Positions 4,810 through 20,799 are shown, counted from the first letter of the stretch. The stretch is 64,000 bases of DNA from Actinomycetota bacterium (GCA_046735135.1 JBKPSU010000008.1:30580-94579), one strand, 5' to 3'. Notes: a model not told the origin generated them from the sequence alone. A program made the numbers and translations.

Positions 4810-5343
4810 TCAGACGGTCCGGCGCTCGCGTTCGTTGGCGAGTTCAACGGTGACCACGTCGAGCGCCATCGACTGGTGATACCCGCGACGCGCCAGCATC
4901 CCCACGAGCCTGCGCATCACCTTGGCGTCATCGTCGTCGCCGAGGCGCTCCCGGCGCAGCTTGTCACGGACCAGCTGTTCGGCCCGCTCCCGCTCCGCGC
5001 CTGCGTCGATATCGGCAAGGGCAGCAGTGATCACCTCGTTGTCCACGCCTTTGGTGCGCAGCTCGGCAGCCAAGGCGCGCTTGCCTTTTCCGGCATTGAC
5101 CCCCCGCGAACGCACCCACTGCTCGGCGAAGCCGGCATCGTCGACGAGGCCCACCTCGGCCAGCCGGTCGAGCACCTGGGCACTGACGTCGTCGGGGTAG
5201 CCCCGCTTGGTCAGCTGGCCGGCCAGCTCGGCCCTGGTGCGAGCCCTCGCGGTGAGCAGGCGCAAGCAGAGCGTCCGCGCCTGCTCCTCGCGGGAGAGTT
5301 CAGCCGACTTAGAAGTCAACGGGGGCGGGCAGGACTTCGTCAT
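4810..5343 (-). CDS. recX: RecA regulator RecX
   Basis: RecX repeat architecture ([24 protein letters not shown]...). Its 5' end overlaps the recA 3' end by 35 nt, as in other mycobacteria. Confidence 0.95.
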
Positions 5344-7453
5344 CGGTCACCACGGCGCCAATACCGAGCTTTTCTTTGATCTTCTTCTCGACCTCGTTGG
5401 CCACGTCGACGTTTTCCATCAGGAAGGTGCGCGCGTTCTCCTTGCCCTGGCCCAGTTGCTCGCCCTCGTAGGTGAACCACGAACCGGACTTGCGGATGAA
5501 GCCCTGCTCGACACCCATGTCGATGAGCGAGCCCTCCTTGCTGATGCCCTTGCCGTAGAGGATGTCGAACTCGGCCTGCTTGAACGGCGGCGAGACTTTG
5601 TTCTTGACCACCTTGACGCGGGTGCGGTTGCCGACCGCGTCGGTGCCGTCCTTCAGCGTCTCGATTCGCCTGACGTCCAAACGAACGGAGGCGTAGAACT
5701 TCAGCGCCTTTCCGCCCGTTGTCGTTTCGGGCGAATTGTGCACCATGACGCCGTCGGCAAAGTAGTTGTGCGAGCCTTCGACCTCGATGTCGAAGCGATT
5801 CATGATGGGATAGTCCGTCTTCGACTCGATCTCGGTGACACGTGCCGGCATCAGTTGCATCGTTTGCTCAACAAACTGCGGTTCCAACCTGAACTGGCCA
5901 CGGAAGCGCGGTAGCAGCTTGTATTCCATGGACGGATGCACATATGGCGCAATCAGCTCCTGGAACTTTGCGCTGGCCTGCGTCGAGAAGACCAGCATTG
6001 CCTTGCCCCGGGAACCGGCGTATCGCAAACGGACATCGAGCCCATGAGTGTCCCGCAGATAGTCACGCAGGCGCACTCGCGATCCCTCGCTCATAGCCTC
6101 CACATGGACCTCGATTCGCCCGCTGCCGCCCTCGGTACGTTGCTGCAGCCCCTTGGAGCGCACACTGAACGACCCGTCGTCCATGTACCAGATCGCCAAC
6201 GCTAACGGCGTGAGCGCCTTCAAGTACTCCTCGGAGAGGACCTTCTTACCGTCGCCCAGGTACACCGCGGACCTCAACTCGTGAAGCTCGGCGAGGGGGG
6301 TAAAGTCGGCGAACACTGCACCCTTGCTGTTACTGGTGCGGCAGTGTGGGATATTCCCCAGCAGCGAGACTTTCCAATCGAGATAGTCCGACTGCCTCGC
6401 CCCGTGTCCCATACGGAGCCGGGCAGATTCCGAATCTTGTCGCACGGGTGGAGATAGGCATCCGTCGCCCATCAACGTACCCAGCACAACTTCCCACTGC
6501 TGATCGCTGAGCAGGCTTGGTTGCGCCAACATCACTCGATCGCCAACACGAATGTCTTCAGCTTCACGCCAGCCACCCGGAGTGCGGATGAGATGGTTAC
6601 GCGTCATCGCCAAGCGGGCATGGCCATGTCCTGACCCGCCGCCAGCCCGGTCGACTTTGAAGTGCAGGAACTCTTCGGTCTTGCCATTGTTGAACCAATT
6701 AGTCACCTTGCGAGGCACAATTTGGCCGGACTCGAAGTCGTAGGACAGGACCTCTACATCCATCTTCTGGTTCACAATCTTGCCGAGCTTTTCCGTCGAA
6801 CCATCGGCGAGAATGACATTGGTGTACCAGGACCCGCACCCGAACATTACTCCGATCTTCTCCCGAAGCTGGTTGATGAAGATCGCGGTGGTGCCCGAAT
6901 TGTTCAGTGCGCCGGTCATCTTCCGCAGTGCCTGACTCATCAGCCGGGCCTGCAGGCCGACGTGGCTGTCGCCCATCTCGCCTTCGATCTCGGCGCGCGG
7001 CACCAGCGCGGCCACCGAGTCGATGACCAGGATGTCCAGCGCTCCGGACCGGATCAGCATGTCGGCGATCTCCAGCGCCTGCTCACCCGTGTCGGGCTGC
7101 GACACCAGCAGCGAGTCGGTGTCCACGCCGAGCTTGCTGGCGTACTCCGGGTCCAGCGCGTGCTCGGCGTCGATGAACGCCGCGATGCCGCCCGCCGCTT
7201 GGGCGTTGGCGACCGCGTGCAGCGCGACGGTGGTCTTACCCGAGGATTCCGGGCCGTAGATCTCGACGACACGGCCGCGCGGCAGCCCGCCGATGCCGAG
7301 CGCCACGTCCAGCGCGATCGAGCCGGTGGGAATGACGGAGATCGGCTGGCGCACTTCCTCGCCGAGCCGCATCACCGAGCCCTTGCCGAAGTTCTTGTCG
7401 ATTTGCGCGAGTGCCAGCTCGAGGGCTTTCTCGCGATCAGGGGCCTGCGACAT
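5309..7453 (-). CDS. recA: Recombinase RecA precursor containing an intein (714 aa; 346 aa after splicing)
   Basis: [31 protein letters not shown] start at ATG 7453. Walker [10 protein letters not shown]. The sequence is interrupted after KIGVMFG and resumes at [23 protein letters not shown]. The 36-codon upstream extension in the ORF track covers the promoter elements and is rejected. Confidence 0.95.
5735..6838 (-). mobile_element. RecA intein (368 aa) with LAGLIDADG homing-endonuclease domain
   Basis: Starts at Cys ([14 protein letters not shown]) directly after extein GVMFG. Block B is TRNH. LAGLIDADG-like motifs [10 protein letters not shown] and [11 protein letters not shown] are present. 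Ends GVMVHN, followed by Ser (+1) of SPETTTGG. Confidence 0.9.
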
Positions 7454-7503
7454 GGGGTTGGTCTCCGTCCTTGCGGTGATCGGTTCTTGATCGGTTGGCC
7501 GTG

Positions 7504-7526
7504 ACGTTAGAGGTAGGTGCCGACAA
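7504..7526 (-). promoter_or_regulatory. RecA-NDp-like (PafBC-type) promoter motif upstream of recA
   Basis: The minus strand reads TTGTCGGCA-CCTACCTC-TAACGT. This fits the published tTGTCRgtg-N8-TAnnnT pattern and lies about 50 nt upstream of the recA ATG. Confidence 0.6.
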
Positions 7527-7554
7527 GTTGTCGTCCCGCTGTCGCCACAGTAGA

Positions 7555-7568
7555 CGAACACGTGTTCG
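7555..7568. promoter_or_regulatory. LexA SOS (Cheo) box
   Basis: Perfect palindrome CGAAC-ACGT-GTTCG (mycobacterial consensus TCGAAC-N4-GTTCGA). It lies about 100 nt upstream of recA and about 83 nt upstream of the divergent hypA. Confidence 0.85.
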
Positions 7569-8895: not shown

Positions 8896-9951
8896 ATGCC
8901 AACTGAGGCAGCAGTCAAAGCGGAAGAAGCCTTGATCCATGTGCTGTGGATCAATGCGGGGTTGAGTTGTGACGGCGATTCTGTGGCGCTGACTGCCGCC
9001 ACGCAACCGAGCATCGAGGAGATCGCCCTTGGCGCGCTCCCCGGCCTGCCCAAGATCGCCGTGCACTGGCCCCTGATCGATTTCGAGTGTGGCCCAAACG
9101 GAGGTGCGGACGACTTCCTCGAGTGGTTCTTCAAGGCCGAGCGGGGGGAATTGGAACCGTTCGTGCTGGTCGTCGAGGGTTCCATCCCGAATGAGCAGCT
9201 CAAAGATGAAGGCTACTGGTGCGGGTTCGGTAACAACCCCGAGACCGGCCAGCCGATGACGACGAGCGAATGGCTGGACCGGCTCGCGCCCAAAGCGACC
9301 GCAATCGTCGCGATGGGAACCTGCGCCACTTACGGCGGTATCCATGCAATGGCGGGTAATCCGACCGGAGCCATGGGGGTGCCCGACTATCTCGGATGGG
9401 ACTGGAAGAGCAAGGCAGGAATTCCGATCGTCTGTGTGCCGGGGTGCCCTGCCCATCCGGACAACATGGCCGAGACGCTGACCTATCTGCTGTATATGGC
9501 CACCGAACAGGCGCCGATGATTCCGCTTGACGAGGCGCTGCGACCAAAGTGGCTGTTCGGCGCCACCGTACACGAGGGCTGTGACCGGGCCGGCTACTAC
9601 GAGCAAGGCGATTTCGCGACCGAATACGGCTCGCCGAAATGCATTGTGAAGCTGGGCTGTTGGGGGCCGGTCGTCAAGTGCAACGTGCCTAAACGGGGCT
9701 GGATCAACGGCATCGGCGGGTGCCCGAACGTCGGTGGCATCTGTATCGGATGCACGATGCCCGGCTTCCCCGACAAGTTCATGCCGTTCATGGATGAGCC
9801 GCCCGGCGGCAAGGTGTCGACAACGGGTTCGCGCATGTATGGGTCGGTGATCCGGAGCCTGCGCCAAGTGACCGGTCGGACGGTCGACAAAGAGCCGAAG
9901 TGGCGCCAGCCCGGAACGAAACTCACGACGGGGGCCACTCGCACCTGGTAG
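8896..9951 (+). CDS. hhyS: [NiFe]-hydrogenase small subunit, group 1h/5 type, no Tat signal
   Basis: Proximal-cluster region LWINAGLSCDGDS. Further Cys clusters GCPAHPDN, CDRAGYYEQGDF, KLGCWGPVVKCNV, GGICIGCTMPGFPD. The N-terminus has no RRxF twin-arginine motif. Confidence 0.9.
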   Translation: MPTEAAVKAEEALIHVLWINAGLSCDGDSVALTAATQPSIEEIALGALPGLPKIAVHWPLIDFECGPNGGADDFLEWFFKAERGELEPFVLVVEGSIPNEQLKDEGYWCGFGNNPETGQPMTTSEWLDRLAPKATAIVAMGTCATYGGIHAMAGNPTGAMGVPDYLGWDWKSKAGIPIVCVPGCPAHPDNMAETLTYLLYMATEQAPMIPLDEALRPKWLFGATVHEGCDRAGYYEQGDFATEYGSPKCIVKLGCWGPVVKCNVPKRGWINGIGGCPNVGGICIGCTMPGFPDKFMPFMDEPPGGKVSTTGSRMYGSVIRSLRQVTGRTVDKEPKWRQPGTKLTTGATRTW

Positions 9952-10049
9952 GTGCGGGTCCCCCTTCGGCGCGCACGGCGGGTGCTAGCCCGGTTATTGG
10001 CGAAATGCCCTGTGGCGCAGTAGACCACACATAGGAAAGAGAAGTTTCG

Positions 10050-11846
10050 ATGACAACGACCATTCCGGAGCCGTCACACGTCAAGCGCGACCCCGGCCAG
10101 CTCGTCGAGATGGCGTGGGATCCGATCACCCGAATCGTCGGCAGCCTCGGCATCTACACCAAGATCGACTTCGACAACAAAGAAGTGGTGGAATGCCACA
10201 GCACGTCGTCGATCTTCCGTGGCTACTCGATCTTCATGAAGGGCAAGGATCCTCGCGACGCGCACTTCATCACCAGCCGCATCTGCGGCATCTGCGGTGA
10301 CAACCACGCCACCTGCTCCTGCTACTGCCAGAACATGGCCTACGGGGTGAAACCGCCGCATCTCGGCGAGTGGCTGATCAACCTCGGCGAGGCCGCGGAA
10401 TACATGTTCGACCACAACATCTTCCAAGAGAACCTGGTCGGCGTGGACTACTGCGAGAAGATGGTGTCCGAGACGAACCCGGGTGTGCTGGCCAAGGCCG
10501 AGAACACCCAGGCGCCGCACGCGGACATGCATGGTTACCGGACGATCGCCGACATCATGCGCGCGCTCAACCCGTTCACCGGCGAGTTCTATCGGGAGGC
10601 CCTCCAGGTCAGCCGGTGGACGCGAGAGATGTTCTGCCTCATGGAAGGTCGCCACGTCCATCCGTCCACGCTGTATCCCGGCGGCATCGGCACCACGGCC
10701 ACCATCCAGTTGATGACGGACTACATGAGCCGGCTGATGCGCTATGTCGAGTTCATGAAGTCGGTCGTGCCGATGCACGACGACCTTTTCGACTTCTTCT
10801 ATGAAGCACTGCCCGGCTACGACCAGGTGGGGCTGCGTCGCACCCTGCTGGGTTGCTGGGGCTCGTTCCAGGACCCGGAGGTCTGCAATTTCGCATACAA
10901 GGACATGGAGAAGTGGGGCAACGCCATGTTCGTCACGCCGGGCGTGGTGATCGACGGCAAGCTGCACACCCACTCGCTGGTCGACATCAACCTGGGCATC
11001 CGAATCCTTTTGGGCAGTTCCTATTACGACGACTGGTCCGACCAGGAGATGTTCGTCAAGACCGACCCGCTGGGTAACTCGATTGATCGACGACATCCAT
11101 GGAACCAGCACACCAACCCGCGTCCACAGAAGCGTGACTTCGATTCGAATTACAGCTGGGTCATGTCCCCACGCTGGTTCGACGGCACGGACCACCTAGC
11201 GCTGGACACCGGCGGCGGACCGTTGGCCCGGCTGTGGTCGACGGCTTTGGCCGGCCTGGTTGACATCGGCTATGTGAAGGCCACTGGCAATAGCGTGCAG
11301 ATCAATCTGCCGAAGACCGCGCTCAAGGGCCCGGTGGAGCTGGAATGGAAGGTGCCGCAGTATGGCAGCAACACGCTCGAGCGCAACCGCGCGCGAACGT
11401 ACTTCCAGGCCTACGCCGCCGCCTGCGCACTGCATTTCGCCGAGAAGGCGCTCGTCGAGATTCGAGCGGGTCGCACCAAGACGTGGGAGAAGTTCGACGT
11501 GCCAGAAGAAGGCATCGGCTGCGGGTTCACCGAAGCGGTGCGCGGGGTGTTGAGTCACCACATGGTGATTCGCGACGGCAAGATCGCGAACTATCACCCC
11601 TATCCGCCGACGCCGTGGAACGCCAACCCTCGGGACAGCTACGGGACGCCAGGTCCGTACGAGGATGCGGTTCAAGGTCAGCCGATCTTCGAAGAGAACG
11701 ATCGGGAGCACTTCAAGGGCATCGACATCATGCGCACAGTGCGCAGCTTCGATCCGTGCCTGCCCTGCGGCGTGCACATGTATCTCGGCGAGGGGAAGAC
11801 ACTGGAGAGGTTGCACTCCCCGACCCAATCCGTTACCGGGGAATGA
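10050..11846 (+). CDS. hhyL: [NiFe]-hydrogenase large subunit, group 1h/5 (high-affinity Hhy type)
   Basis: L1 motif TSRICGICGDNH (nt 10272-10307) and C-terminal L2 motif SFDPCLPCGVH. Both match the group 5 signatures as I recall them. Confidence 0.93.
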   Translation: MTTTIPEPSHVKRDPGQLVEMAWDPITRIVGSLGIYTKIDFDNKEVVECHSTSSIFRGYSIFMKGKDPRDAHFITSRICGICGDNHATCSCYCQNMAYGVKPPHLGEWLINLGEAAEYMFDHNIFQENLVGVDYCEKMVSETNPGVLAKAENTQAPHADMHGYRTIADIMRALNPFTGEFYREALQVSRWTREMFCLMEGRHVHPSTLYPGGIGTTATIQLMTDYMSRLMRYVEFMKSVVPMHDDLFDFFYEALPGYDQVGLRRTLLGCWGSFQDPEVCNFAYKDMEKWGNAMFVTPGVVIDGKLHTHSLVDINLGIRILLGSSYYDDWSDQEMFVKTDPLGNSIDRRHPWNQHTNPRPQKRDFDSNYSWVMSPRWFDGTDHLALDTGGGPLARLWSTALAGLVDIGYVKATGNSVQINLPKTALKGPVELEWKVPQYGSNTLERNRARTYFQAYAAACALHFAEKALVEIRAGRTKTWEKFDVPEEGIGCGFTEAVRGVLSHHMVIRDGKIANYHPYPPTPWNANPRDSYGTPGPYEDAVQGQPIFEENDREHFKGIDIMRTVRSFDPCLPCGVHMYLGEGKTLERLHSPTQSVTGE

Positions 11847-11849
11847 CAT

Positions 11850-12788
11850 ATGCCGCATCGCCCGGATAACCCCGAACAAGATGCGCAGTGGCGCAACGCG
11901 GGCGATCGGATACAGAGTCTTCTCGACGCCAGCGCAGCAGGTGGCGCTGTCGTGCATGAACGCGCGGAGCAGTTGGTCGGTGAGGTAACCGACCTCTACG
12001 GCGCCGGTCTCGAGCGGATGCTCGCAATGGCGGTGAGCGCGAACCCGGAGCTCGCCGACGCGTTCGCCGCCGACGACCTAATCGCCAGCCTGATGTTGGT
12101 GCACGGATTGCATCCGCACACTGTCGAGCGGCGGATCGAGAACGCGCTCGACAGCGTGCGGCCCTACCTCGGGTCACACGGCGGGGATGTCCATCTGTTG
12201 GAGGTCGACGGCGAGGTGGTCCGCCTGCAGTTCGCAGGCAGCTGCAAGAGTTGCCCGTCGTCCGCGATCACCCTCGAGCTGGCGGTCGAGGATGCGGTAC
12301 GTGCCGCCGCACCGGAGATCTCGACCATCGAAGTGGTTGCCGCCGAGCCGGAGTCGAAGCCGGCGATGATTCCCGCCGACAGTCTGATGAGCCGCGTGCG
12401 CACACAGTCGCTGGCCCCGCACGCCTGGCATCCCGTGCCCGGCGTCGCCGAACTCACCCCCGGCGAGGTCGGTGGATTCGCCGTCGCAGGCACCACGGTG
12501 CTCGCATGCCGCGTGGGCGACCAGCTGTTCGCCTACCGGGACCGCTGCGGATGCTGCGGTGAGTCGCTCGCAGGGGCGGCCCTGCACCGGCGCCTCGGAG
12601 CTTCGAGCCGCGACGCCGTCCTTCGCTGCCCGCGGTGCCATGCGCATTTCGATGTCGTGCACGCCGGCGCATGCGTCGACGGAAACAGCTCCGACAATGG
12701 GCAAGCCGACGCCCATCTCGAGCCGATTCCGTTGTTGGAGCGCGACGGAGTGCTGTCGATGGCGGTCGCCGAGGCGGTGGCGTCATGA
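11850..12788 (+). CDS. hhyE: Hydrogenase-associated Fe-S protein: NifU C-terminal-like domain plus Rieske-like Cys-rich domain (HhyE-like)
   Basis: Nfu-like HGGDVHLLEVDGEVVRLQFAGSCKSCPSS. The C-terminal part has RCGCCGESL...CPRCHAHFD. It lies directly downstream of hhyL. Confidence 0.75.
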   Translation: MPHRPDNPEQDAQWRNAGDRIQSLLDASAAGGAVVHERAEQLVGEVTDLYGAGLERMLAMAVSANPELADAFAADDLIASLMLVHGLHPHTVERRIENALDSVRPYLGSHGGDVHLLEVDGEVVRLQFAGSCKSCPSSAITLELAVEDAVRAAAPEISTIEVVAAEPESKPAMIPADSLMSRVRTQSLAPHAWHPVPGVAELTPGEVGGFAVAGTTVLACRVGDQLFAYRDRCGCCGESLAGAALHRRLGASSRDAVLRCPRCHAHFDVVHAGACVDGNSSDNGQADAHLEPIPLLERDGVLSMAVAEAVAS

Positions 12789-13420
12789 CCGGCGCGTACG
12801 ACGTTCTGGCACGCATCAGGGCCGCCCGGGCGGATCCGCAGCCCGCCGGTGAGCGCTGCGAGATGTGCGCAGAGGCGATCGCCGACGAACATCAGCATGT
12901 GGTGAATGTCGAAGGCCGGCAGCTGATGTGTGTCTGCCGAGGCTGCTACCTGCTGTTCACCGACACCGACGCGAAGTTGCGCTACCGCGCTATCCCTGAC
13001 CGCTACCTCGTCTTCCCGGATTTCGCGCTGGACCGACGGCACTGGGAGGCCCTGCAGATACCGGTCGGCCTGGCGTTCTTCTTCCGAAATTCGGCGCTGG
13101 ACCGGACGGTGGCGTTCTATCCGGGACCCGCAGGCGCCACCGAATCCGAGCTGGACCTGGCGGCCTGGAACGACATTCGCACGGCCGACCGGCGCGTGGA
13201 CATGCTCGCCGAGGACACCGAGGCCGTGCTGGTGCGCGTGCCCGACGAGGAAACCGCCGCGCCGCAGAGTTATCTCCTTCCCATCGACGCCTGCTACGAG
13301 TTCGTCGGCAGGCTGCGACTGCTGTGGCGCGGCTTCGACGGCGGCCAGCAGGTGCGGGGATTCATCGACGAGTTCTTCGGCCTGCTGGACAAGCGCAGCC
13401 GGGTGGTGACCCGCGCATGA
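12785..13420 (+). CDS. Conserved hydrogenase-cluster protein of unknown function (Cys-rich N-terminus)
   Basis: ATG 12785 overlaps the hhyE stop (ATGA). CEMCAEAI...MCVCRGCYLLF cysteine pattern. The 50-codon Arg-rich upstream extension in the ORF track is rejected. Confidence 0.75.
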   Translation: MTGAYDVLARIRAARADPQPAGERCEMCAEAIADEHQHVVNVEGRQLMCVCRGCYLLFTDTDAKLRYRAIPDRYLVFPDFALDRRHWEALQIPVGLAFFFRNSALDRTVAFYPGPAGATESELDLAAWNDIRTADRRVDMLAEDTEAVLVRVPDEETAAPQSYLLPIDACYEFVGRLRLLWRGFDGGQQVRGFIDEFFGLLDKRSRVVTRA

Positions 13421-13478
13421 CTTCCCGAAGGCGAGCGCGAGTGAGGATCGCAGCGAAGCTGCGAGTGGGAGCCGAGGC

Positions 13479-14123
13479 ATGACAGACGTCACGTTCGCGG
13501 TGGTCGGCGTCGAACCGGAGCCCTACGCGGTGACTCCGGTGTTGAACGCCCGGCTCGGCATCGCCGCGGTCGGAGACGACCCGATCCACACGATCGCGCT
13601 GCGCGCTGCGGTGCGCATCGAGCCGATGCGGCGCGGCTACTCCGACGAGGAGGCCGCCGGGATCGTCGACCTGTTCGGCCCGCGCGAACGCTGGGCCACC
13701 ACCCTTCACACATTCCAGTGGCTGCAGACCTCGGCGATGGTGCAGGGGTTCAGCGGCGCCACTCAGGTCAACCTCCCGCTGGAGTGCACCTATGACTTCG
13801 AGGTCGCGGCGTCGAAGTATCTGCACGCCCTGCGCGACGGCGCCGTCCCACTGCAATTCCTCTTCAGCGGAACGATTTTCTCGCAGGGCGCGCGGGGCTT
13901 CGCGGTTCAGCAGGTCCCGTGGGACCGTGAGGACCACTTCGAGATGCCCGTGTCGGTGTGGCGCGACCTGATGCAACAGCACTATCCGAACACCGGCTGG
14001 CTTCGCCTGGACAGGGACACGCTCGATGGACTGGCGGCGTATCGCTCGGCGCGCGGCCTGCTGTCCCTCGACGAGGCGGTCACCTCGCTCCTCGATGCCA
14101 GTTCGACGGAGGAGATCCGATGA
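13479..14123 (+). CDS. Conserved hydrogenase-cluster protein of unknown function
   Basis: 214-aa ORF with good high-GC codon usage, co-directional within the operon. The next gene's start overlaps its stop. Confidence 0.7.
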   Translation: MTDVTFAVVGVEPEPYAVTPVLNARLGIAAVGDDPIHTIALRAAVRIEPMRRGYSDEEAAGIVDLFGPRERWATTLHTFQWLQTSAMVQGFSGATQVNLPLECTYDFEVAASKYLHALRDGAVPLQFLFSGTIFSQGARGFAVQQVPWDREDHFEMPVSVWRDLMQQHYPNTGWLRLDRDTLDGLAAYRSARGLLSLDEAVTSLLDASSTEEIR

Positions 14124-15460
14124 ACGCGAACTGGGACCGTGCCCGCGCCGTCGCCGACGCGGTGCTCTACGAGGGCTATCTGCTCTACCCGTACCGCGCC
14201 AACTCGCGAAAGAACCAGACGCGCTGGCAGTTCGGGGTACTCGGGCCCGCGGGCGCAGCCGACGCGGGCATCGGCGAGGACGACACGCTATCCGCTCAGG
14301 TAGTGGTTTCGCCGCGGACGAACCCGACGGTCTACGTCGTGGTGCGCTTCCTCCAACTGCAGCACCGCGGTGTGGAAAAGGATGTGGGTGGCGGACGGTT
14401 CGAACCCGTCGAGGAGCTGGTATCAGGGTCGCGGTCCTGGTTGCGGTGGGACGAGGCCGTGGAACGGGAGCTCTCGTTCGGGCCTTTCGACATCGAATCG
14501 CAGCTGCCGCAGACGCTTCCAGTCGACGTCGAGGCGGGCACCGACATCGAGAACGTCGACGGCGGCAGACTGGTCCGCACCCGCCGCGCCCTGCGCGCAC
14601 AACTCGAGATCACCGCAGACTACGACGACGGGTTCGTGCGCCTGACGGTGACGATGCGCAACACCGCGGCGCCCGCCGATGACAAGGACGAGGCGATCGC
14701 GGTGTCGCTGATCGGCACCCACCTACTCGCCGAGGTCACCGACGGCGAATTCGTGTCACTTCTCGAACCACCGGCATCGGCCGACAACGCCGTCGCCCGA
14801 TGCCGTCACCATCGCTGCTTCCCCGTGCTCGCCGGGCCGCCAGGCGACCACGCGCTGGTGCTGGCATCGCCGATCATCCTCTACGACCACCCCGAGATCG
14901 CCGAGCAGAGCGAGGGCGCACTGTACGACTCCACCGAGATCGATGAGATCCTCACGCTGCGCATCATGACGATGACCGACGAGGAGAAGGCGGTGGCACG
15001 CGCAACCGATCCACTCGCCGCACGGATCATCGACCGGTGCGACTCGATGTCGCCGGAGGCGTTGCTCAACCTGCACGGCGTGCTGCGCAACCCGCATGCC
15101 GTCGGCGACGAACCGGCCCTGATCCCGGAGATACCCGACGGGGTCGACTGGTGGGACCCGTTGGCCGACAACGCCGTAGCGCCCGACGTCGATGCCGTGC
15201 TGGTGAATGGTGTGCGGGTGAGCCGCGGCAGCAGGGTGCGGTTGCGTCCGTCGCGTCGCGCCGACGCGCAGGATCTGTTCTTCGCGGACAAAATCGCGCG
15301 GGTCACCTCGGTGCACGAAACTGTCGACGGTGACCAACACGTCGGCGTCGTACTCGAGGACGACCCGGCGGCCGATCTGCACGAGTGGTACGGCCGCTTC
15401 CTGTACTTCGCACCCGATGAGGTCGAACCGTTGAGTGAAAGGAATCCGACATGGATGTAG
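14120..15460 (+). CDS. Conserved hydrogenase-cluster protein of unknown function (446 aa)
   Basis: ATG 14120 overlaps the upstream stop (ATGA). MNANWDRARAVADAVLYEGYLLYPYR start. No motif I recognise. Confidence 0.7.
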   Translation: MNANWDRARAVADAVLYEGYLLYPYRANSRKNQTRWQFGVLGPAGAADAGIGEDDTLSAQVVVSPRTNPTVYVVVRFLQLQHRGVEKDVGGGRFEPVEELVSGSRSWLRWDEAVERELSFGPFDIESQLPQTLPVDVEAGTDIENVDGGRLVRTRRALRAQLEITADYDDGFVRLTVTMRNTAAPADDKDEAIAVSLIGTHLLAEVTDGEFVSLLEPPASADNAVARCRHHRCFPVLAGPPGDHALVLASPIILYDHPEIAEQSEGALYDSTEIDEILTLRIMTMTDEEKAVARATDPLAARIIDRCDSMSPEALLNLHGVLRNPHAVGDEPALIPEIPDGVDWWDPLADNAVAPDVDAVLVNGVRVSRGSRVRLRPSRRADAQDLFFADKIARVTSVHETVDGDQHVGVVLEDDPAADLHEWYGRFLYFAPDEVEPLSERNPTWM

Positions 15461-15570
15461 TGGGCTGGGTCGCGGTAGGCGTCGTCGCTGCCGTCGTGCT
15501 TGGTGGTGTGGTCGTCGGTGTGGCATCCCTTCCAGATGCCCGGCGCTACATGAAGATTCGCCGCATGTAG
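15451..15570 (+). CDS. Putative 39-aa single-pass membrane peptide
   Basis: MDVVGWVAVGVVAAVVLGGVVVGVASLPDARRYMKIRRM: one hydrophobic helix with a basic tail. Overlaps the upstream gene's end by 10 nt. Too short for the supplied ORF track. Confidence 0.4.
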   Translation: MDVVGWVAVGVVAAVVLGGVVVGVASLPDARRYMKIRRM

Positions 15571-15602
15571 AGAACAGGAGCGACGTCACGTCCCAAATAC
15601 TG

Positions 15603-16067
15603 GTGGCCGGCATCGGCAACATCTTCCTCGGCGACGACGGGTTCGGACCCGAGGTGATTCGCCACGTGCCCGAGCAGCTCGCGAGTCCGCGCGTCCGGGT
15701 GGTGGACTACGGGATCAGGGGTATGCACCTGGCCTACGATCTGCTGGACGGCTGCGAGGCGCTGATCCTCGTGGACGCACTGCCCAACCGCGGCACGCCG
15801 GGCACCGTGCATGTGTTCGAGGCCGACCACGAAACCCTCACCGCGCAAGTCGGTCTTGATGCCCACGCGATGGACCCGGCCGCCGTGTTCGCCAGCCTGG
15901 CCGCACTGGGTGGCACAGCGCCGTACACCGTGGTGATCGGCTGCGAGGTCGACAACGTCGACGAGGGCATGGGCCTGACGGGTGCGGTCGCGGCAGCGGT
16001 CCCCGACGCGGTCAACGCCATCGAGGACGTGGTGGCGCGGCTCACGACTCCGGTAGCCGGGGGCTGA
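15603..16067 (+). CDS. Hydrogenase maturation endopeptidase (HupD/HybD family); start uncertain
   Basis: ILVAGIGNIFLGDDGFGPEV plus DALP...GT plus HAMDP motifs. The first canonical in-frame start is GTG 15603. However, AGGAG at 15576-15580 and the conserved-looking residues TSQIL suggest a non-canonical start near 15585-15600. Confidence 0.8.
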   Translation: MAGIGNIFLGDDGFGPEVIRHVPEQLASPRVRVVDYGIRGMHLAYDLLDGCEALILVDALPNRGTPGTVHVFEADHETLTAQVGLDAHAMDPAAVFASLAALGGTAPYTVVIGCEVDNVDEGMGLTGAVAAAVPDAVNAIEDVVARLTTPVAGG

Positions 16068-18617: not shown

Positions 18618-19373
18618 ATGACCGCCCTACACGAACAGAAACTTCCCGCGGGCTACACGTTATTCGCACGCTACGCCTTTCCGCCCAACGAGCTCGGCTA
18701 CTGCGGTCCCGCTGACGCCGAGGTGTTGTTGCGCGGCGACGACGCGGCCGCGGTCGCCGCCCACGCCAAGGAGTTCGACGGCGCGTGGCCCTATCTGCGG
18801 GCCATCGCCGACGCAGCAGGCACACCGGATGCGTTGGACGCCGATGTCGTGCGCAGTTACTGGGTCGGCGGCCCGCAGCTGGATCGGGTTGACCCAGAAG
18901 GTCTGCTGCAGACGCTGCGCCGCGCCTTCCAGGGTCAAACAACGGGACTGCTGTTCGACCTGAATCAAGCGCGGGGCGCACTGGCCCATCACAGCTTCCA
19001 CGTCTTCGTGGTGTACCCCTGGGTGCGGTTTCTCGACCGGGACGCGGCGACGGCGCTTAAGGTCCTGCAGGACTGCCGGATCCGATGGGGCATCGTGGAA
19101 TCCGTCGAAGACGAACACGCGGTGATTACGACCAGCCCGCTGACATTCGCCGACGGCACCCTGGCACTCGGCGCGCCGCGGACCGAGCGGGTGCGCTGGA
19201 GGAAGAACAGGGTCTCGCTGATCGGGCCACCGGCGCCGGGCGACGTGGTGTCCGCGCATTGGGACTGGGCATGCGGCGTGCTGGACGAAGACGAATGTGA
19301 GGCGCTGACGGCGGCGACGCAGACGACACTGGATCTCGTGAACGCCGCCCGCGACGAGGAGCGAAACCGATGA
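18618..19373 (+). CDS. Conserved hydrogenase-cluster protein of unknown function (251 aa)
   Basis: ATG 18618 lies 5 nt after the hypF stop. MTALHEQKLPAGYTLFARYAFPPNELGYCGP start. No catalytic motif recognised. Confidence 0.7.
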   Translation: MTALHEQKLPAGYTLFARYAFPPNELGYCGPADAEVLLRGDDAAAVAAHAKEFDGAWPYLRAIADAAGTPDALDADVVRSYWVGGPQLDRVDPEGLLQTLRRAFQGQTTGLLFDLNQARGALAHHSFHVFVVYPWVRFLDRDAATALKVLQDCRIRWGIVESVEDEHAVITTSPLTFADGTLALGAPRTERVRWRKNRVSLIGPPAPGDVVSAHWDWACGVLDEDECEALTAATQTTLDLVNAARDEERNR

Positions 19374-20116
19374 CAGTCAATAAAGAACAGGGCGGGGGTT
19401 ACGTCGACACGAATCTGTCCGCCGACCTGGCTGCCGCAGCACTGGACCTGGCCCGCAAGTTTCACGACGGCGCCACGCTGTGGGTGATCTCTCCCCAGTG
19501 GGAGCCGCACGCCCATCACGTCGCCGTCGAGTTCGTCCATCCCGTGATCATGGGTAAACGGGCGCTGCCGTCGGTTGCCCTCGTCGACCCCGACCCGGTG
19601 GCACAGGCCAGGGTTGCCACCCAACCCGGCGACCTGCTGATGGCGGTGGCGTCTGCCGACGAACCCGCGACGATCGACGCGATGCGGCGGGCGCCGGCGT
19701 GGGGTGCGCTGACCTTGTGGATCGGCTCCGGTCCGCGCCCGCCCGCCGGCGCGGCGAACCACATCCTGTGGGTCGACTCCGACGATCCGATGGTGCCCGC
19801 CACCGGACGCTTCGTCCTGCTGTATCACCTGCTGTGGGAGCTCACCCACGTCTGCTTCGAGCATCCCGGTCTGCTGAAGCCGGCCCCGCAGGAGTGCACC
19901 GACGACGTCTGCGTGACGTGCAGTGACGAAGGGCGCCTCGCTGAAGTGATCCTGGAGCCCGCAGACCGGTTGGGGCAGGCCCTGGTTCGCACCAGCAATG
20001 GTGAGGAGTGGGTGGATGTCAGCGTGCTCGGCGATGTCGCGCCGAACGACCTTGTGCTGCTGCATGCGGGAACGGCGATCGCGCGCCTTGGCGATGCAGA
20101 GGAGGTGAACCGATGA
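19370..20116 (+). CDS. Degenerate SIS-like domain fused to a C-terminal HypC/HupF-like domain
   Basis: The N-terminal part aligns by eye to the GmhA/SIS fold but lacks the GNGGS and STSGNS motifs. The C-terminal part, CVTCSDEGRLAEVI...GEEWVDVSVLGDVAPNDLVLLHAGTAIARL, resembles a HypC barrel. ATGA overlaps at both ends. Confidence 0.65.
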   Translation: MTVNKEQGGGYVDTNLSADLAAAALDLARKFHDGATLWVISPQWEPHAHHVAVEFVHPVIMGKRALPSVALVDPDPVAQARVATQPGDLLMAVASADEPATIDAMRRAPAWGALTLWIGSGPRPPAGAANHILWVDSDDPMVPATGRFVLLYHLLWELTHVCFEHPGLLKPAPQECTDDVCVTCSDEGRLAEVILEPADRLGQALVRTSNGEEWVDVSVLGDVAPNDLVLLHAGTAIARLGDAEEVNR

Positions 20117-20799
20117 CCACACACGGCGAGAGCACCGAGAGCACGGGCTTTCTGTATCCGTTCATCGAGTCCGAGGAGACCGATGCCACCAGCCTGCTCG
20201 ACGATCTCTCCGCCTCGGCAAGGGGCAAGGCCGCCGAAAGCGCCCGCCTGCAACGGGAGTCGCTGCAGGAGTACGGGCCCGCACTGTCCGCGGCGGGAAT
20301 CGAGATGGCCGAGCGGTTCCTTCGCGGCGGTCGGCTCTACACCTTGGGCAACGGAGGCAGCTCCACCGACGCGGCAACATTGGCGTCGCTGTTCAGTCGT
20401 CCGGCGCAGGGCCGCGCGGTGGCGGCGTGGTCACTGGCCGCAGACGAGGCGGTGGTGACGGCACTCGGCAACGACGTGGGCTTCGAGCTGATCTTCAAGC
20501 GGCAGATCATCGCCCACGCCCGCGATCGCGATGTCGCCATCGCGTTGTCGACCTCCGGCAACTCCGAGGATTTGATGACGGCGATCACCGAAGCCAAGCG
20601 CCGAGGCCTGCTGACGATCGGGTTCTCCGGTCACGACGGCGGCCGGATGGCGGTGGCAGAGGACCTCGACCACTGCTTCACGGTGCACAGCCAGAGCATT
20701 CACCGCATCCAGGAGAGCCACGCCATGCTCGGCTTCCGGCTCTGGTCGGTCGCGCAGGAACACATGTCCCGTCCCCGTAATGGAGTGCACACTTCATGA
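20113..20799 (+). CDS. SIS-domain protein (phosphoheptose isomerase GmhA-like)
   Basis: Canonical SIS motifs LGNGGSSTDA and LSTSGNSEDL, and the HRIQESHAMLG helix. ATGA overlaps with both neighbours. Confidence 0.8.
   Translation: MTTHGESTESTGFLYPFIESEETDATSLLDDLSASARGKAAESARLQRESLQEYGPALSAAGIEMAERFLRGGRLYTLGNGGSSTDAATLASLFSRPAQGRAVAAWSLAADEAVVTALGNDVGFELIFKRQIIAHARDRDVAIALSTSGNSEDLMTAITEAKRRGLLTIGFSGHDGGRMAVAEDLDHCFTVHSQSIHRIQESHAMLGFRLWSVAQEHMSRPRNGVHTS

Follow-up and report, generated by a model that had tools for sequence, protein, structure and literature searches.

Group 1h [NiFe]-hydrogenases are a major biological sink for atmospheric H2. A gene cluster for such an enzyme (Hhy) is present in the DNA studied here, a stretch of 64,000 nucleotides (nt) from an Actinomycetota bacterium (GCA_046735135.1 JBKPSU010000008.1:30580-94579), which in its full length is referred to as the window. 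Gene calls on the + strand, with families assigned by Pfam and NCBIfam profile searches, give the order hypA, hypB, hhyS, hhyL, five further genes designated g1 to g5, a HycI/HupD-type maturation endopeptidase, hypC, and hypF (Table 1). The five open reading frames (ORFs) between hhyL and the protease were found as described in an earlier note on this DNA, which had taken their products for stoichiometric partners of the hydrogenase that might account for its electron route and its membrane tether. In the interpretation developed below, to which an about even chance is given, g1 to g5 and the adjacent HupD would instead constitute a maturation and assembly module specific to group 1h, and not the respiratory electron-transfer chain of Hhy.

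Table 1. Coordinates of the hydrogenase structural genes, the cassette g1-g5, and the protease gene in the window (aa, amino acids).
Feature	Position	Strand	Basis and remarks
hhyS, group 1h [NiFe]-hydrogenase small subunit	8896-9951	+	ORF; directly upstream of hhyL, order kept in related loci
hhyL, group 1h large subunit	10050-11846	+	1075 bits to HofG of 5AA5
g1 = HhyE, 312 aa	11850-12788	+	NifU PF01106, E 2e-21; Rieske PF00355 borderline
g2 = DUF5947 (PF19372), 211 aa	12785-13420	+	E 8.5e-72, profile 1-176 of 177
g3 = DUF6084 (PF19562), 214 aa	13479-14123	+	E 2.5e-96, profile 1-211 of 213
g4, 446 aa	14120-15460	+	without Pfam or NCBIfam family
g5 = DUF6893 (PF21833), 39 aa	15451-15570	+	E 3.3e-14, profile 2-32 of 32; alternative GTG start 15460
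hupD/HycI-type maturation endopeptidase	about 15603-16067	+	PF01750, E 5e-16; TIGR00072, E 1e-35

The stop codon of hhyL is separated from the ATG of g1 by 3 nt. ATGA overlaps are present at 12785 (g1/g2) and 14120 (g3/g4), and g4 and g5 overlap by 10 nt. The junction of g2 and g3 is a 58-nt gap with no overlap, so that the translational coupling claimed for all five genes holds for most junctions and fails at this one. Neither a + strand terminator nor a notable RNA structure (fold z-score -0.76) was found in the gap, and the search for + strand terminators between hypA and hypC was likewise negative. Among 78 related loci, g2 and g3 overlap in 59, by 4 nt in 53 of these, and the 4-nt overlap of g3 and g4 is seen in 71. 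As judged by alignment to HofG of 5AA5, residues 577-598 of HhyL form a C-terminal extension of 22 residues that would be removed by the protease; the alignment stops at His576, matching the mature HofG C-terminus at residue 579 (5AA5). The protease frame itself is open from 15435 and contains no ATG, GTG, or TTG before GTG 15603, with AGGAG at 15575-15579. GTG 15603 is the first conventional start, and the true start is possibly non-canonical.

Gene context was compared in 80 loci from GTDB genomes, all of them Actinomycetota (Mycobacterium, Nocardia, Rhodococcus, Arthrobacter, Nocardioides, Asanoa, Pseudonocardiales, and others). The order hhyS-hhyL-g1-g2-g3-g4-(g5)-hupD-hypC is kept in 80 of 80, as far as the contigs reach. 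Each of g1 to g5 has thousands of homologues which, together with this constancy of order, argues that the genes are not chance ORFs. The window is that of a Mycolicibacterium-like actinobacterium, its g4 product being 86-87% identical to proteins named from M. stellerae and M. moriokaense. One contig binned as 'Candidatus Sericytochromatia' (L008, JBLNEK010000105.1) encodes a g4 protein 72% identical to that of the window within mycobacterial gene order, and is probably a mis-binned Mycobacterium contig.

The same cassette is found on plasmids of Cupriavidus necator, Methylocystis parvus, Streptomyces, Embleya, and Kitasatospora. On the C. necator plasmid pHG1, the annotated genes are those for the small and large subunits, a NifU family protein of 192 aa, DUF5947, DUF6084, a hypothetical protein of 476 aa, and the protease, in this order; g4 and the pHG1 protein are 34% identical. 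The dedication of the cassette to group 1h, which the earlier note had implied, is borne out by its co-occurrence with hhySL in Actinomycetota, Beta- and Alphaproteobacteria, and Myxococcota. Arrangements in which the module lies apart from the structural genes are found as well. In a Polyangiaceae locus (L081), hypC-hypD-hypE-hhyS-hhyL-hypF are encoded on one strand, and a divergent operon contains hypB, a protein corresponding to the N-terminal domain of HhyE, DUF5947, g4, HycI, and DUF6893, with no DUF6084. Directly after hhyL of this locus, i.e., in the usual HhyE position, lies a 75-aa Pro/Arg-rich ORF with no family match (L081 2769-2996, - strand). In another locus (L085), g4, HycI, and DUF6893 are followed by hypA-hypB-hypF onward. 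In two further loci (L082 and L083), HycI is grouped with an HhyE-like protein and a DUF5947::g4 fusion, and the flanking 10 kilobases or so on each side contain no hydrogenase gene.

Gene fusions were sought among the 150 best g4 representatives (50%-identity clusters). In-frame g4::HycI fusions with intact protease motifs are present in six clusters (P0139, P0149, P0173, P0190, P0197, and P0200); one DUF6084::g4 fusion (P0240) and one DUF5947::g4 fusion (P0268) were also found. In one locus (L087), the order is DUF6084, g4::protease fusion, hypC. The protease fusions and the gene context identify the endopeptidase that would trim the HhyL extension as the constant companion of g2-g4. An apparent fusion of the HhyE C-terminus to DUF5947 (P0352, 377 aa, on an ENA contig of 1219 nt) has a junction that reads out-of-frame and is probably a frameshift or gene-calling artefact.

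The product of g1 was correctly noted as an HhyE-like NifU/Rieske-like protein. Its position directly downstream of a group 1h hhyL, the CxxC motif of its NifU domain, and its two C-terminal CxxC motifs are those by which Islam et al. 2019 defined HhyE. It consists of an N-terminal helical domain (about residues 18-91), a NifU/Nfu-like domain (residues 96-160) with the CxxC pair C132/C135, and a Rieske-like C-terminal domain (residues 193-280). PDB matches to the NifU domain include plant Nfu2 and other Nfu proteins, with the CxxC motif aligned, while in NCBIfam the protein scores well short of the cutoffs for NifU and NfuA. The Rieske-like assignment is borderline (21.3 bits against PF00355 at a cutoff of 20.3, E 2.6e-4), and PDB matches to Rieske proteins are weak (E 0.045-0.9).

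Cysteine conservation in HhyE was scored over 72 actinobacterial sequences, in which C132, C135, C220, C233, C236, C260, and C263 are invariant. The neighbouring C235 is V, R, or A in relatives, from which it follows that the conserved site is C233xxC236...C260xxC263, a CxxC...CxxC arrangement. The earlier description of a site reading CGCCG...CPRCH with Cys in place of the Rieske His is therefore right in part: the sequence is present, and a conserved exchange of His for Cys is found at the second Rieske His position alone (CPxH to CPxC), whereas the variability of C235 argues against a CxC motif. The Rieske ligand signature CxH...CxxH, i.e., two Cys and two His, does not occur (C233-G-C-C236, C260-P-R-C263). 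The putative C-terminal site is a rubredoxin-like arrangement on a predicted Rieske-like scaffold, as Islam et al. described (PMC6883350).

In several lineages these cysteines are missing. C. necator PHG066 (192 aa) and the Methylocystis counterpart retain the helical region at the N-terminus and the NifU-like region, and have neither CxxC nor the Rieske-like domain; the L082 homologue (179 aa) aligns to residues 18-179 of g1 and is without the iron-sulfur (Fe-S) cysteines, and the Polyangiaceae homologue (121 aa) is the N-terminal helical domain alone. Judged by these homologues, the predicted Fe-S ligands are dispensable in the family and are not a family property, and the label 'Fe-S protein' fails across lineages.

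Profile searches, which the earlier note had proposed, placed g2, g3, and g5 in DUF5947, DUF6084, and DUF6893, respectively, and returned no family for g4. The Cys-rich g2 protein contains CEMCAEAI...MCVCRGCYLLF as quoted. Its conservation was assessed in a 150-member alignment spanning mycobacteria, Streptomyces, Actinoplanes, and Myxococcota, 147 members of which are full-length. The cluster C25xxC28-x7-H36xH38-x10-C49xC51xxC54 (CCHHCCC) is intact in 147 of 147 full-length sequences, and C170 is present in about 90%. A metal-binding protein is predicted from this pattern. The AlphaFold2 model of g2, built with 150 sequences (mean predicted local distance difference test, pLDDT, 92.7; predicted template modelling score, pTM, 0.84), shows a short beta-rich N-terminal part bearing the Cys/His cluster, followed by an alpha/beta domain. 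Foldseek against the PDB gave no match to this model better than E 0.056 and no redox-protein fold.

No Cys or His is conserved in the g3 protein, which is missing from the Polyangiaceae module; among its invariant positions R, W, F, Y, P, and G predominate. Neither sequence nor profile searches of the PDB turned up a chain homologous to g2, g3, or g4. No Pfam or NCBIfam match connects these three proteins to HypA-F, HupF/K, HyaE/F, HybE, or HoxO/Q/R/T/V. For g2-g5, there is no Pfam match to a Fer4, Fer2, or cytochrome family, and for g2 and g4 no such fold was found with Foldseek. The idea that g3 or g2 is a paralogue of g4 was dropped, as no relationship was detected by BLASTP or hhalign.

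At E <= 1e-3 the g4 family comprises 3805 representative clusters of the 50%-identity library, of which 990 remain at E <= 1e-30. For this family of thousands of members there is no Pfam or NCBIfam model. Acidic or polar residues make up most of its invariant positions (E18, N32, R35, D256, D270, E273, E289, D297, H319, D382, and D385); there is no conserved Cys and no cofactor motif. The AlphaFold2 model, based on an 87-sequence alignment (pLDDT 91.2, pTM 0.75), is composed of an N-terminal helix, a large beta-sandwich (residues 56-250), an acidic helical region (residues 275-319), a low-confidence linker (about residues 320-358, pLDDT 54-70), and an SH3-like C-terminal beta domain (residues 359-437). 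In Foldseek searches against the PDB only the SH3-like domain was matched convincingly; it resembles PetP, BAH domains, and the C-terminal domain of nitrile hydratase beta. In a viral structure library, likewise, the SH3-like domain alone was matched. As modelled, the folds of g2 and g4 are without counterpart among solved structures. Three candidate matches of g4 were set aside: DrmA of the DISARM system, ranked first in the PDB search (E 8.5e-6, with a template modelling score of only 0.23, a root-mean-square deviation of 22 Å, and no match in PADLOC), nitrile hydratase beta (probability only about 0.55), and a Phage_TAC_7 Pfam hint in 9 of 87 homologues (best E 0.002).

The 39-aa g5 product is a membrane peptide, as the earlier note had it, with one hydrophobic membrane-spanning stretch (residues 4-26) and a basic C-terminal tail, in agreement with the features of DUF6893. 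Its consensus starts with M-E-V-L-G-W, continues with a hydrophobic stretch of about 20 residues, and ends with SxPDxxRY(L/M)KxRRM-COOH. It was detected in 71 of 79 actinobacterial loci by regular expression and tblastn, and wherever found it adjoins the protease: in mycobacteria before it, and in Polyangiaceae, L085, Streptomyces fungicidicus, and C. necator pHG1 after it. In the last two, the DUF6893-like ORF is unannotated and lies just after the protease. It reads MKGFLKYLVLPALVVALLANIKDIRRYIRIRSM in C. necator pHG1 (L084, about 11002-11100) and ...AANVWPDVRRYLRIRSM in Streptomyces fungicidicus p1 (L089, ending at 10035). The notion that g5 marks only membrane-bound Hhy and is absent in C. 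necator was dropped in view of the pHG1 ORF. This conserved micropeptide gene is frequently missing from reference annotations.

In the proposed scheme, g2 as a metal-binding protein with a Cys/His cluster, the cofactor-free g3, and g4 with its beta-sandwich, acidic helical, and SH3-like parts would form a cytoplasmic scaffold or chaperone. This scaffold would hold the HhyL precursor or an HhyS-HhyL intermediate and present it to the protease for removal of the 22-residue extension. HhyE would supply a conserved helical and NifU-fold scaffold, and in mycobacteria its Nfu-type CxxC and rubredoxin-like four-Cys site may supply Fe-S clusters, repair them, or shield them while the enzyme is assembled under fully aerobic conditions, in a role analogous to that of Nfu carriers and the HoxR rubredoxin. 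The protease-associated step would be placed at the membrane by g5 through its cytoplasmic basic tail.

This maturation module is favoured by the fusion to and linkage with the endopeptidase and by its separability from hhySL, as outside Actinomycetota it travels with the protease and hyp genes. The loss of the HhyE Fe-S ligands in lineages with otherwise intact clusters, the lack of cofactor motifs in g3 and g4, and the lack of a redox fold in g2 and g4 point in the same direction. Of the cassette proteins, only HhyE has been addressed experimentally. It was named by Islam et al. and deleted in Mycobacterium smegmatis (MSMEG_2718), upon which Hhy activity was lost. The failure of nitroblue tetrazolium as artificial electron acceptor to compensate for the loss (PMC6883350) is better accounted for by a role in assembly. 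Islam et al. preferred an electron-acceptor role and explicitly allowed that of an assembly factor (PMC6883350). The absence of any PDB chain homologous to g2-g4 argues for maturation as well; HofG of 5AA5 was the only group 1h large subunit found there. A parallel is seen in the hydrogenase Huc, where HucE is required for activity (PMC6883350), while in the publication on purified Huc three subunits are described and HucE is nowhere mentioned (PMC10017518). Further support comes from the lack of a + strand terminator between hypA and hypC and from the 4-nt overlaps in most relatives.

Several points weigh against a maturation module. Some of the fusions derive from metagenome gene calls and could be artefacts. 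In Actinomycetota and Proteobacteria the cassette lies directly after hhyL, a placement which Islam et al. count as association with the structural operon. The seven strictly conserved Cys/His ligands of g2 could bind an Fe-S cluster, and C. necator PHG067, a homologue of g2 and of MSMEG_2717, had been proposed as electron acceptor (cited in PMC6883350). HhyE was reported to co-localize with HhyS and HhyL on native gels (PMC6883350). Hhy of M. smegmatis is tightly membrane-bound and cholate-resistant, though HhyS and HhyL are without transmembrane segment (bioRxiv 10.1101/769216), and g5 is the sole membrane element in the cluster. Finally, gene content, gene order, fusions, conservation and loss of ligands, and novelty of folds have been observed, while every interaction and activity in the scheme is inferred from them.

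The same points lend some weight to the reading of the earlier note, put forward also by Islam 2019 and by Schafer 2013 as cited there, that the cassette encodes partners of the mature enzyme. HhyE and DUF5947 would pass electrons on from the distal HhyS cluster to menaquinone, with g3 and g4 as scaffold and g5 as tether. Coupling to hhyL, the conserved Cys motifs of mycobacterial HhyE and Cys/His cluster of g2, the essential nature of HhyE and its reported co-localization with HhySL (PMC6883350), the strong membrane attachment of Hhy with no known anchor (PMC13332983; bioRxiv 10.1101/769216), and a conserved membrane-spanning peptide would all be in line with it. It is nevertheless judged unlikely. 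An electron relay is difficult to reconcile with HhyE homologues lacking the cysteines in C. necator, Methylocystis, and L082, with g3 and g4 free of cofactor motifs, and with the absence of a detectable redox-protein fold in g2 and g4. Stoichiometric partnership is weakened by the lack of PDB chains homologous to g2-g4 and by an hhyE deletion that an artificial acceptor does not rescue (PMC6883350). The invariant neighbour of g2-g4 is the protease, as seen from the fusions to g4, the operon with hypB, and the stand-alone module, and not hhySL, from which the module is genetically separable; the suggested tether has its like in the pHG1 cluster of C. necator, the hydrogenase of which was reportedly purified as a soluble enzyme (Schafer 2013).

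A division of labour is likewise doubtful. Here g2-g4 would act in maturation together with the protease, and the long mycobacterial HhyE, g5, or both would serve the mature enzyme as electron outlet or membrane docking. The Rieske-like and CxxC domains of HhyE have been added to a conserved core in particular lineages, the place of g5, on one side of the protease or the other, varies independently of g2-g4, and Hhy of M. smegmatis is membrane-bound (bioRxiv 10.1101/769216). On the other hand, g5 adjoins the protease wherever it occurs, and the hhyE deletion is not rescued by the artificial acceptor (PMC6883350). Also unlikely is the idea that g2-g4, the protease, and g5 form an undescribed membrane-anchored assembly platform, in which the g5 tail PDxxRYLKxRRM-COOH would fix Hhy or the final maturation step to the membrane and the g2 CxxC-HxH-CxCxxC motif would be a new metal-handling centre for aerobic [NiFe] or Fe-S assembly. 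That the module is an O2-protection or reactivation system keeping Hhy active in air, rather than one for assembly, is very improbable: it would suit enzymes working in fully oxic cells, the rubredoxin-like four-Cys site of HhyE, and the need for a rubredoxin-type accessory protein in the aerobic maturation of another hydrogenase (cited in PMC6883350), yet it leaves the endopeptidase fusions unexplained, and redox-capable cysteines are missing in several lineages.

Huc has by now been accounted for structurally. As to how Hhy is built in air, how it is held at the membrane, and where its electrons go, the five genes are the only cluster-specific candidates. The comparative evidence shifts the priority to HhyL processing and assembly, ahead of a search for the electron acceptor.

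Further features lie around the cassette. Downstream of hypF, the cluster continues with three genes (18618-20799, + strand), hypE, and a second hypC. The three genes encode a DUF6390 protein (251 aa, E 1e-90), a protein of 248 aa, the C-terminal similarity of which to HypC is below the Pfam cutoff, and an SIS-domain protein that is GmhA-like (228 aa). All three are found again in most mycobacterial loci, and genes for SIS-domain proteins are also part of the C. necator and L085 clusters. Upstream, on the - strand (5309-7561), recA carries an intein after ...REKIGVMFG; the inserted segment contains a LAGLIDADG-like motif and ends with ...GVMVHN, after which the host sequence resumes. Its position is presumably the insertion site of the RecA intein of M. 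tuberculosis.

As an observation the cassette is not new. It is known to specialists as a set of conserved hypothetical genes, MSMEG_2718 onward in M. smegmatis and PHG066-PHG069 on pHG1 of C. necator H16 being orthologues of the genes in the window, arranged alike downstream of the large-subunit gene and with a g4 counterpart of about 450-476 aa. A 2026 comparative paper lists the cassette genes as hypothetical proteins and states that no membrane anchor of group 1h enzymes is known (PMC13332983). The undescribed function suggested in the earlier note accordingly still applies to g2-g5, while HhyE had already been named and deleted. A literature search found no paper tying DUF5947, DUF6084, DUF6893, or DUF6390 to hydrogenases and no published structure of an Hhy complex. 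Added here are the protease linkage of the cassette, the HhyE homologues devoid of cysteines, the strictly conserved ligands of g2, the novel folds of g2 and g4, and the wide conservation of the micropeptide along with its frequent absence from annotations.

Differing from the window, PHG066 of C. necator is without the CxxC motif and Rieske-like domain, and the g5-like ORF follows the protease. In RefSeq, hhyS/hofK is labelled 'hydrogenase expression protein HypE' in C. necator (L084 4208-5263), Methylocystis (L088 3299-4378), and Streptomyces (L089 3134-4222). This label on the group 1h small subunit is a systematic misannotation, on which a paper on Rhodococcus equi has also remarked.

HhyE is like Nfu carriers in its NifU domain with CxxC and like the HoxR/HupI rubredoxins in its C-terminal CxxC...CxxC; the C. 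necator group 1d hydrogenase depends on a rubredoxin for its aerobic maturation (cited in PMC6883350). Unlike either, HhyE has an extra N-terminal helical domain and a four-Cys site on a putative Rieske-like fold, and unlike Rieske proteins it has CxxC...CxxC in place of CxH...CxxH. The domain order, NifU followed by Rieske, is that of HucE of group 2a hydrogenases (PMC6883350). Huc also provides, with its membrane-associated scaffold HucM, an example of an extra protein, specific to the hydrogenase, by which an oxidizer of atmospheric H2 that lacks a cytochrome b subunit gains access to membrane and quinone. In the purified Huc complex HucM is present as a stoichiometric subunit (PMC10017518), and none of g1-g5 resembles it.

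With the classical accessory proteins (HypA, HypC/HupF, HupK/HoxV, HyaE/HoxO, HyaF/HoxQ/HupH, and HybE), the cassette shares the location in an operon with the maturation endopeptidase and hyp genes. It differs from them in that g2-g4 have no family match and g2 and g4 no structural match, and in that the cluster contains canonical hypA, hypB, and hypC as genes of their own. In principle, g2 resembles HypA in combining a CxxC...CxxC pair with extra His/Cys ligands.

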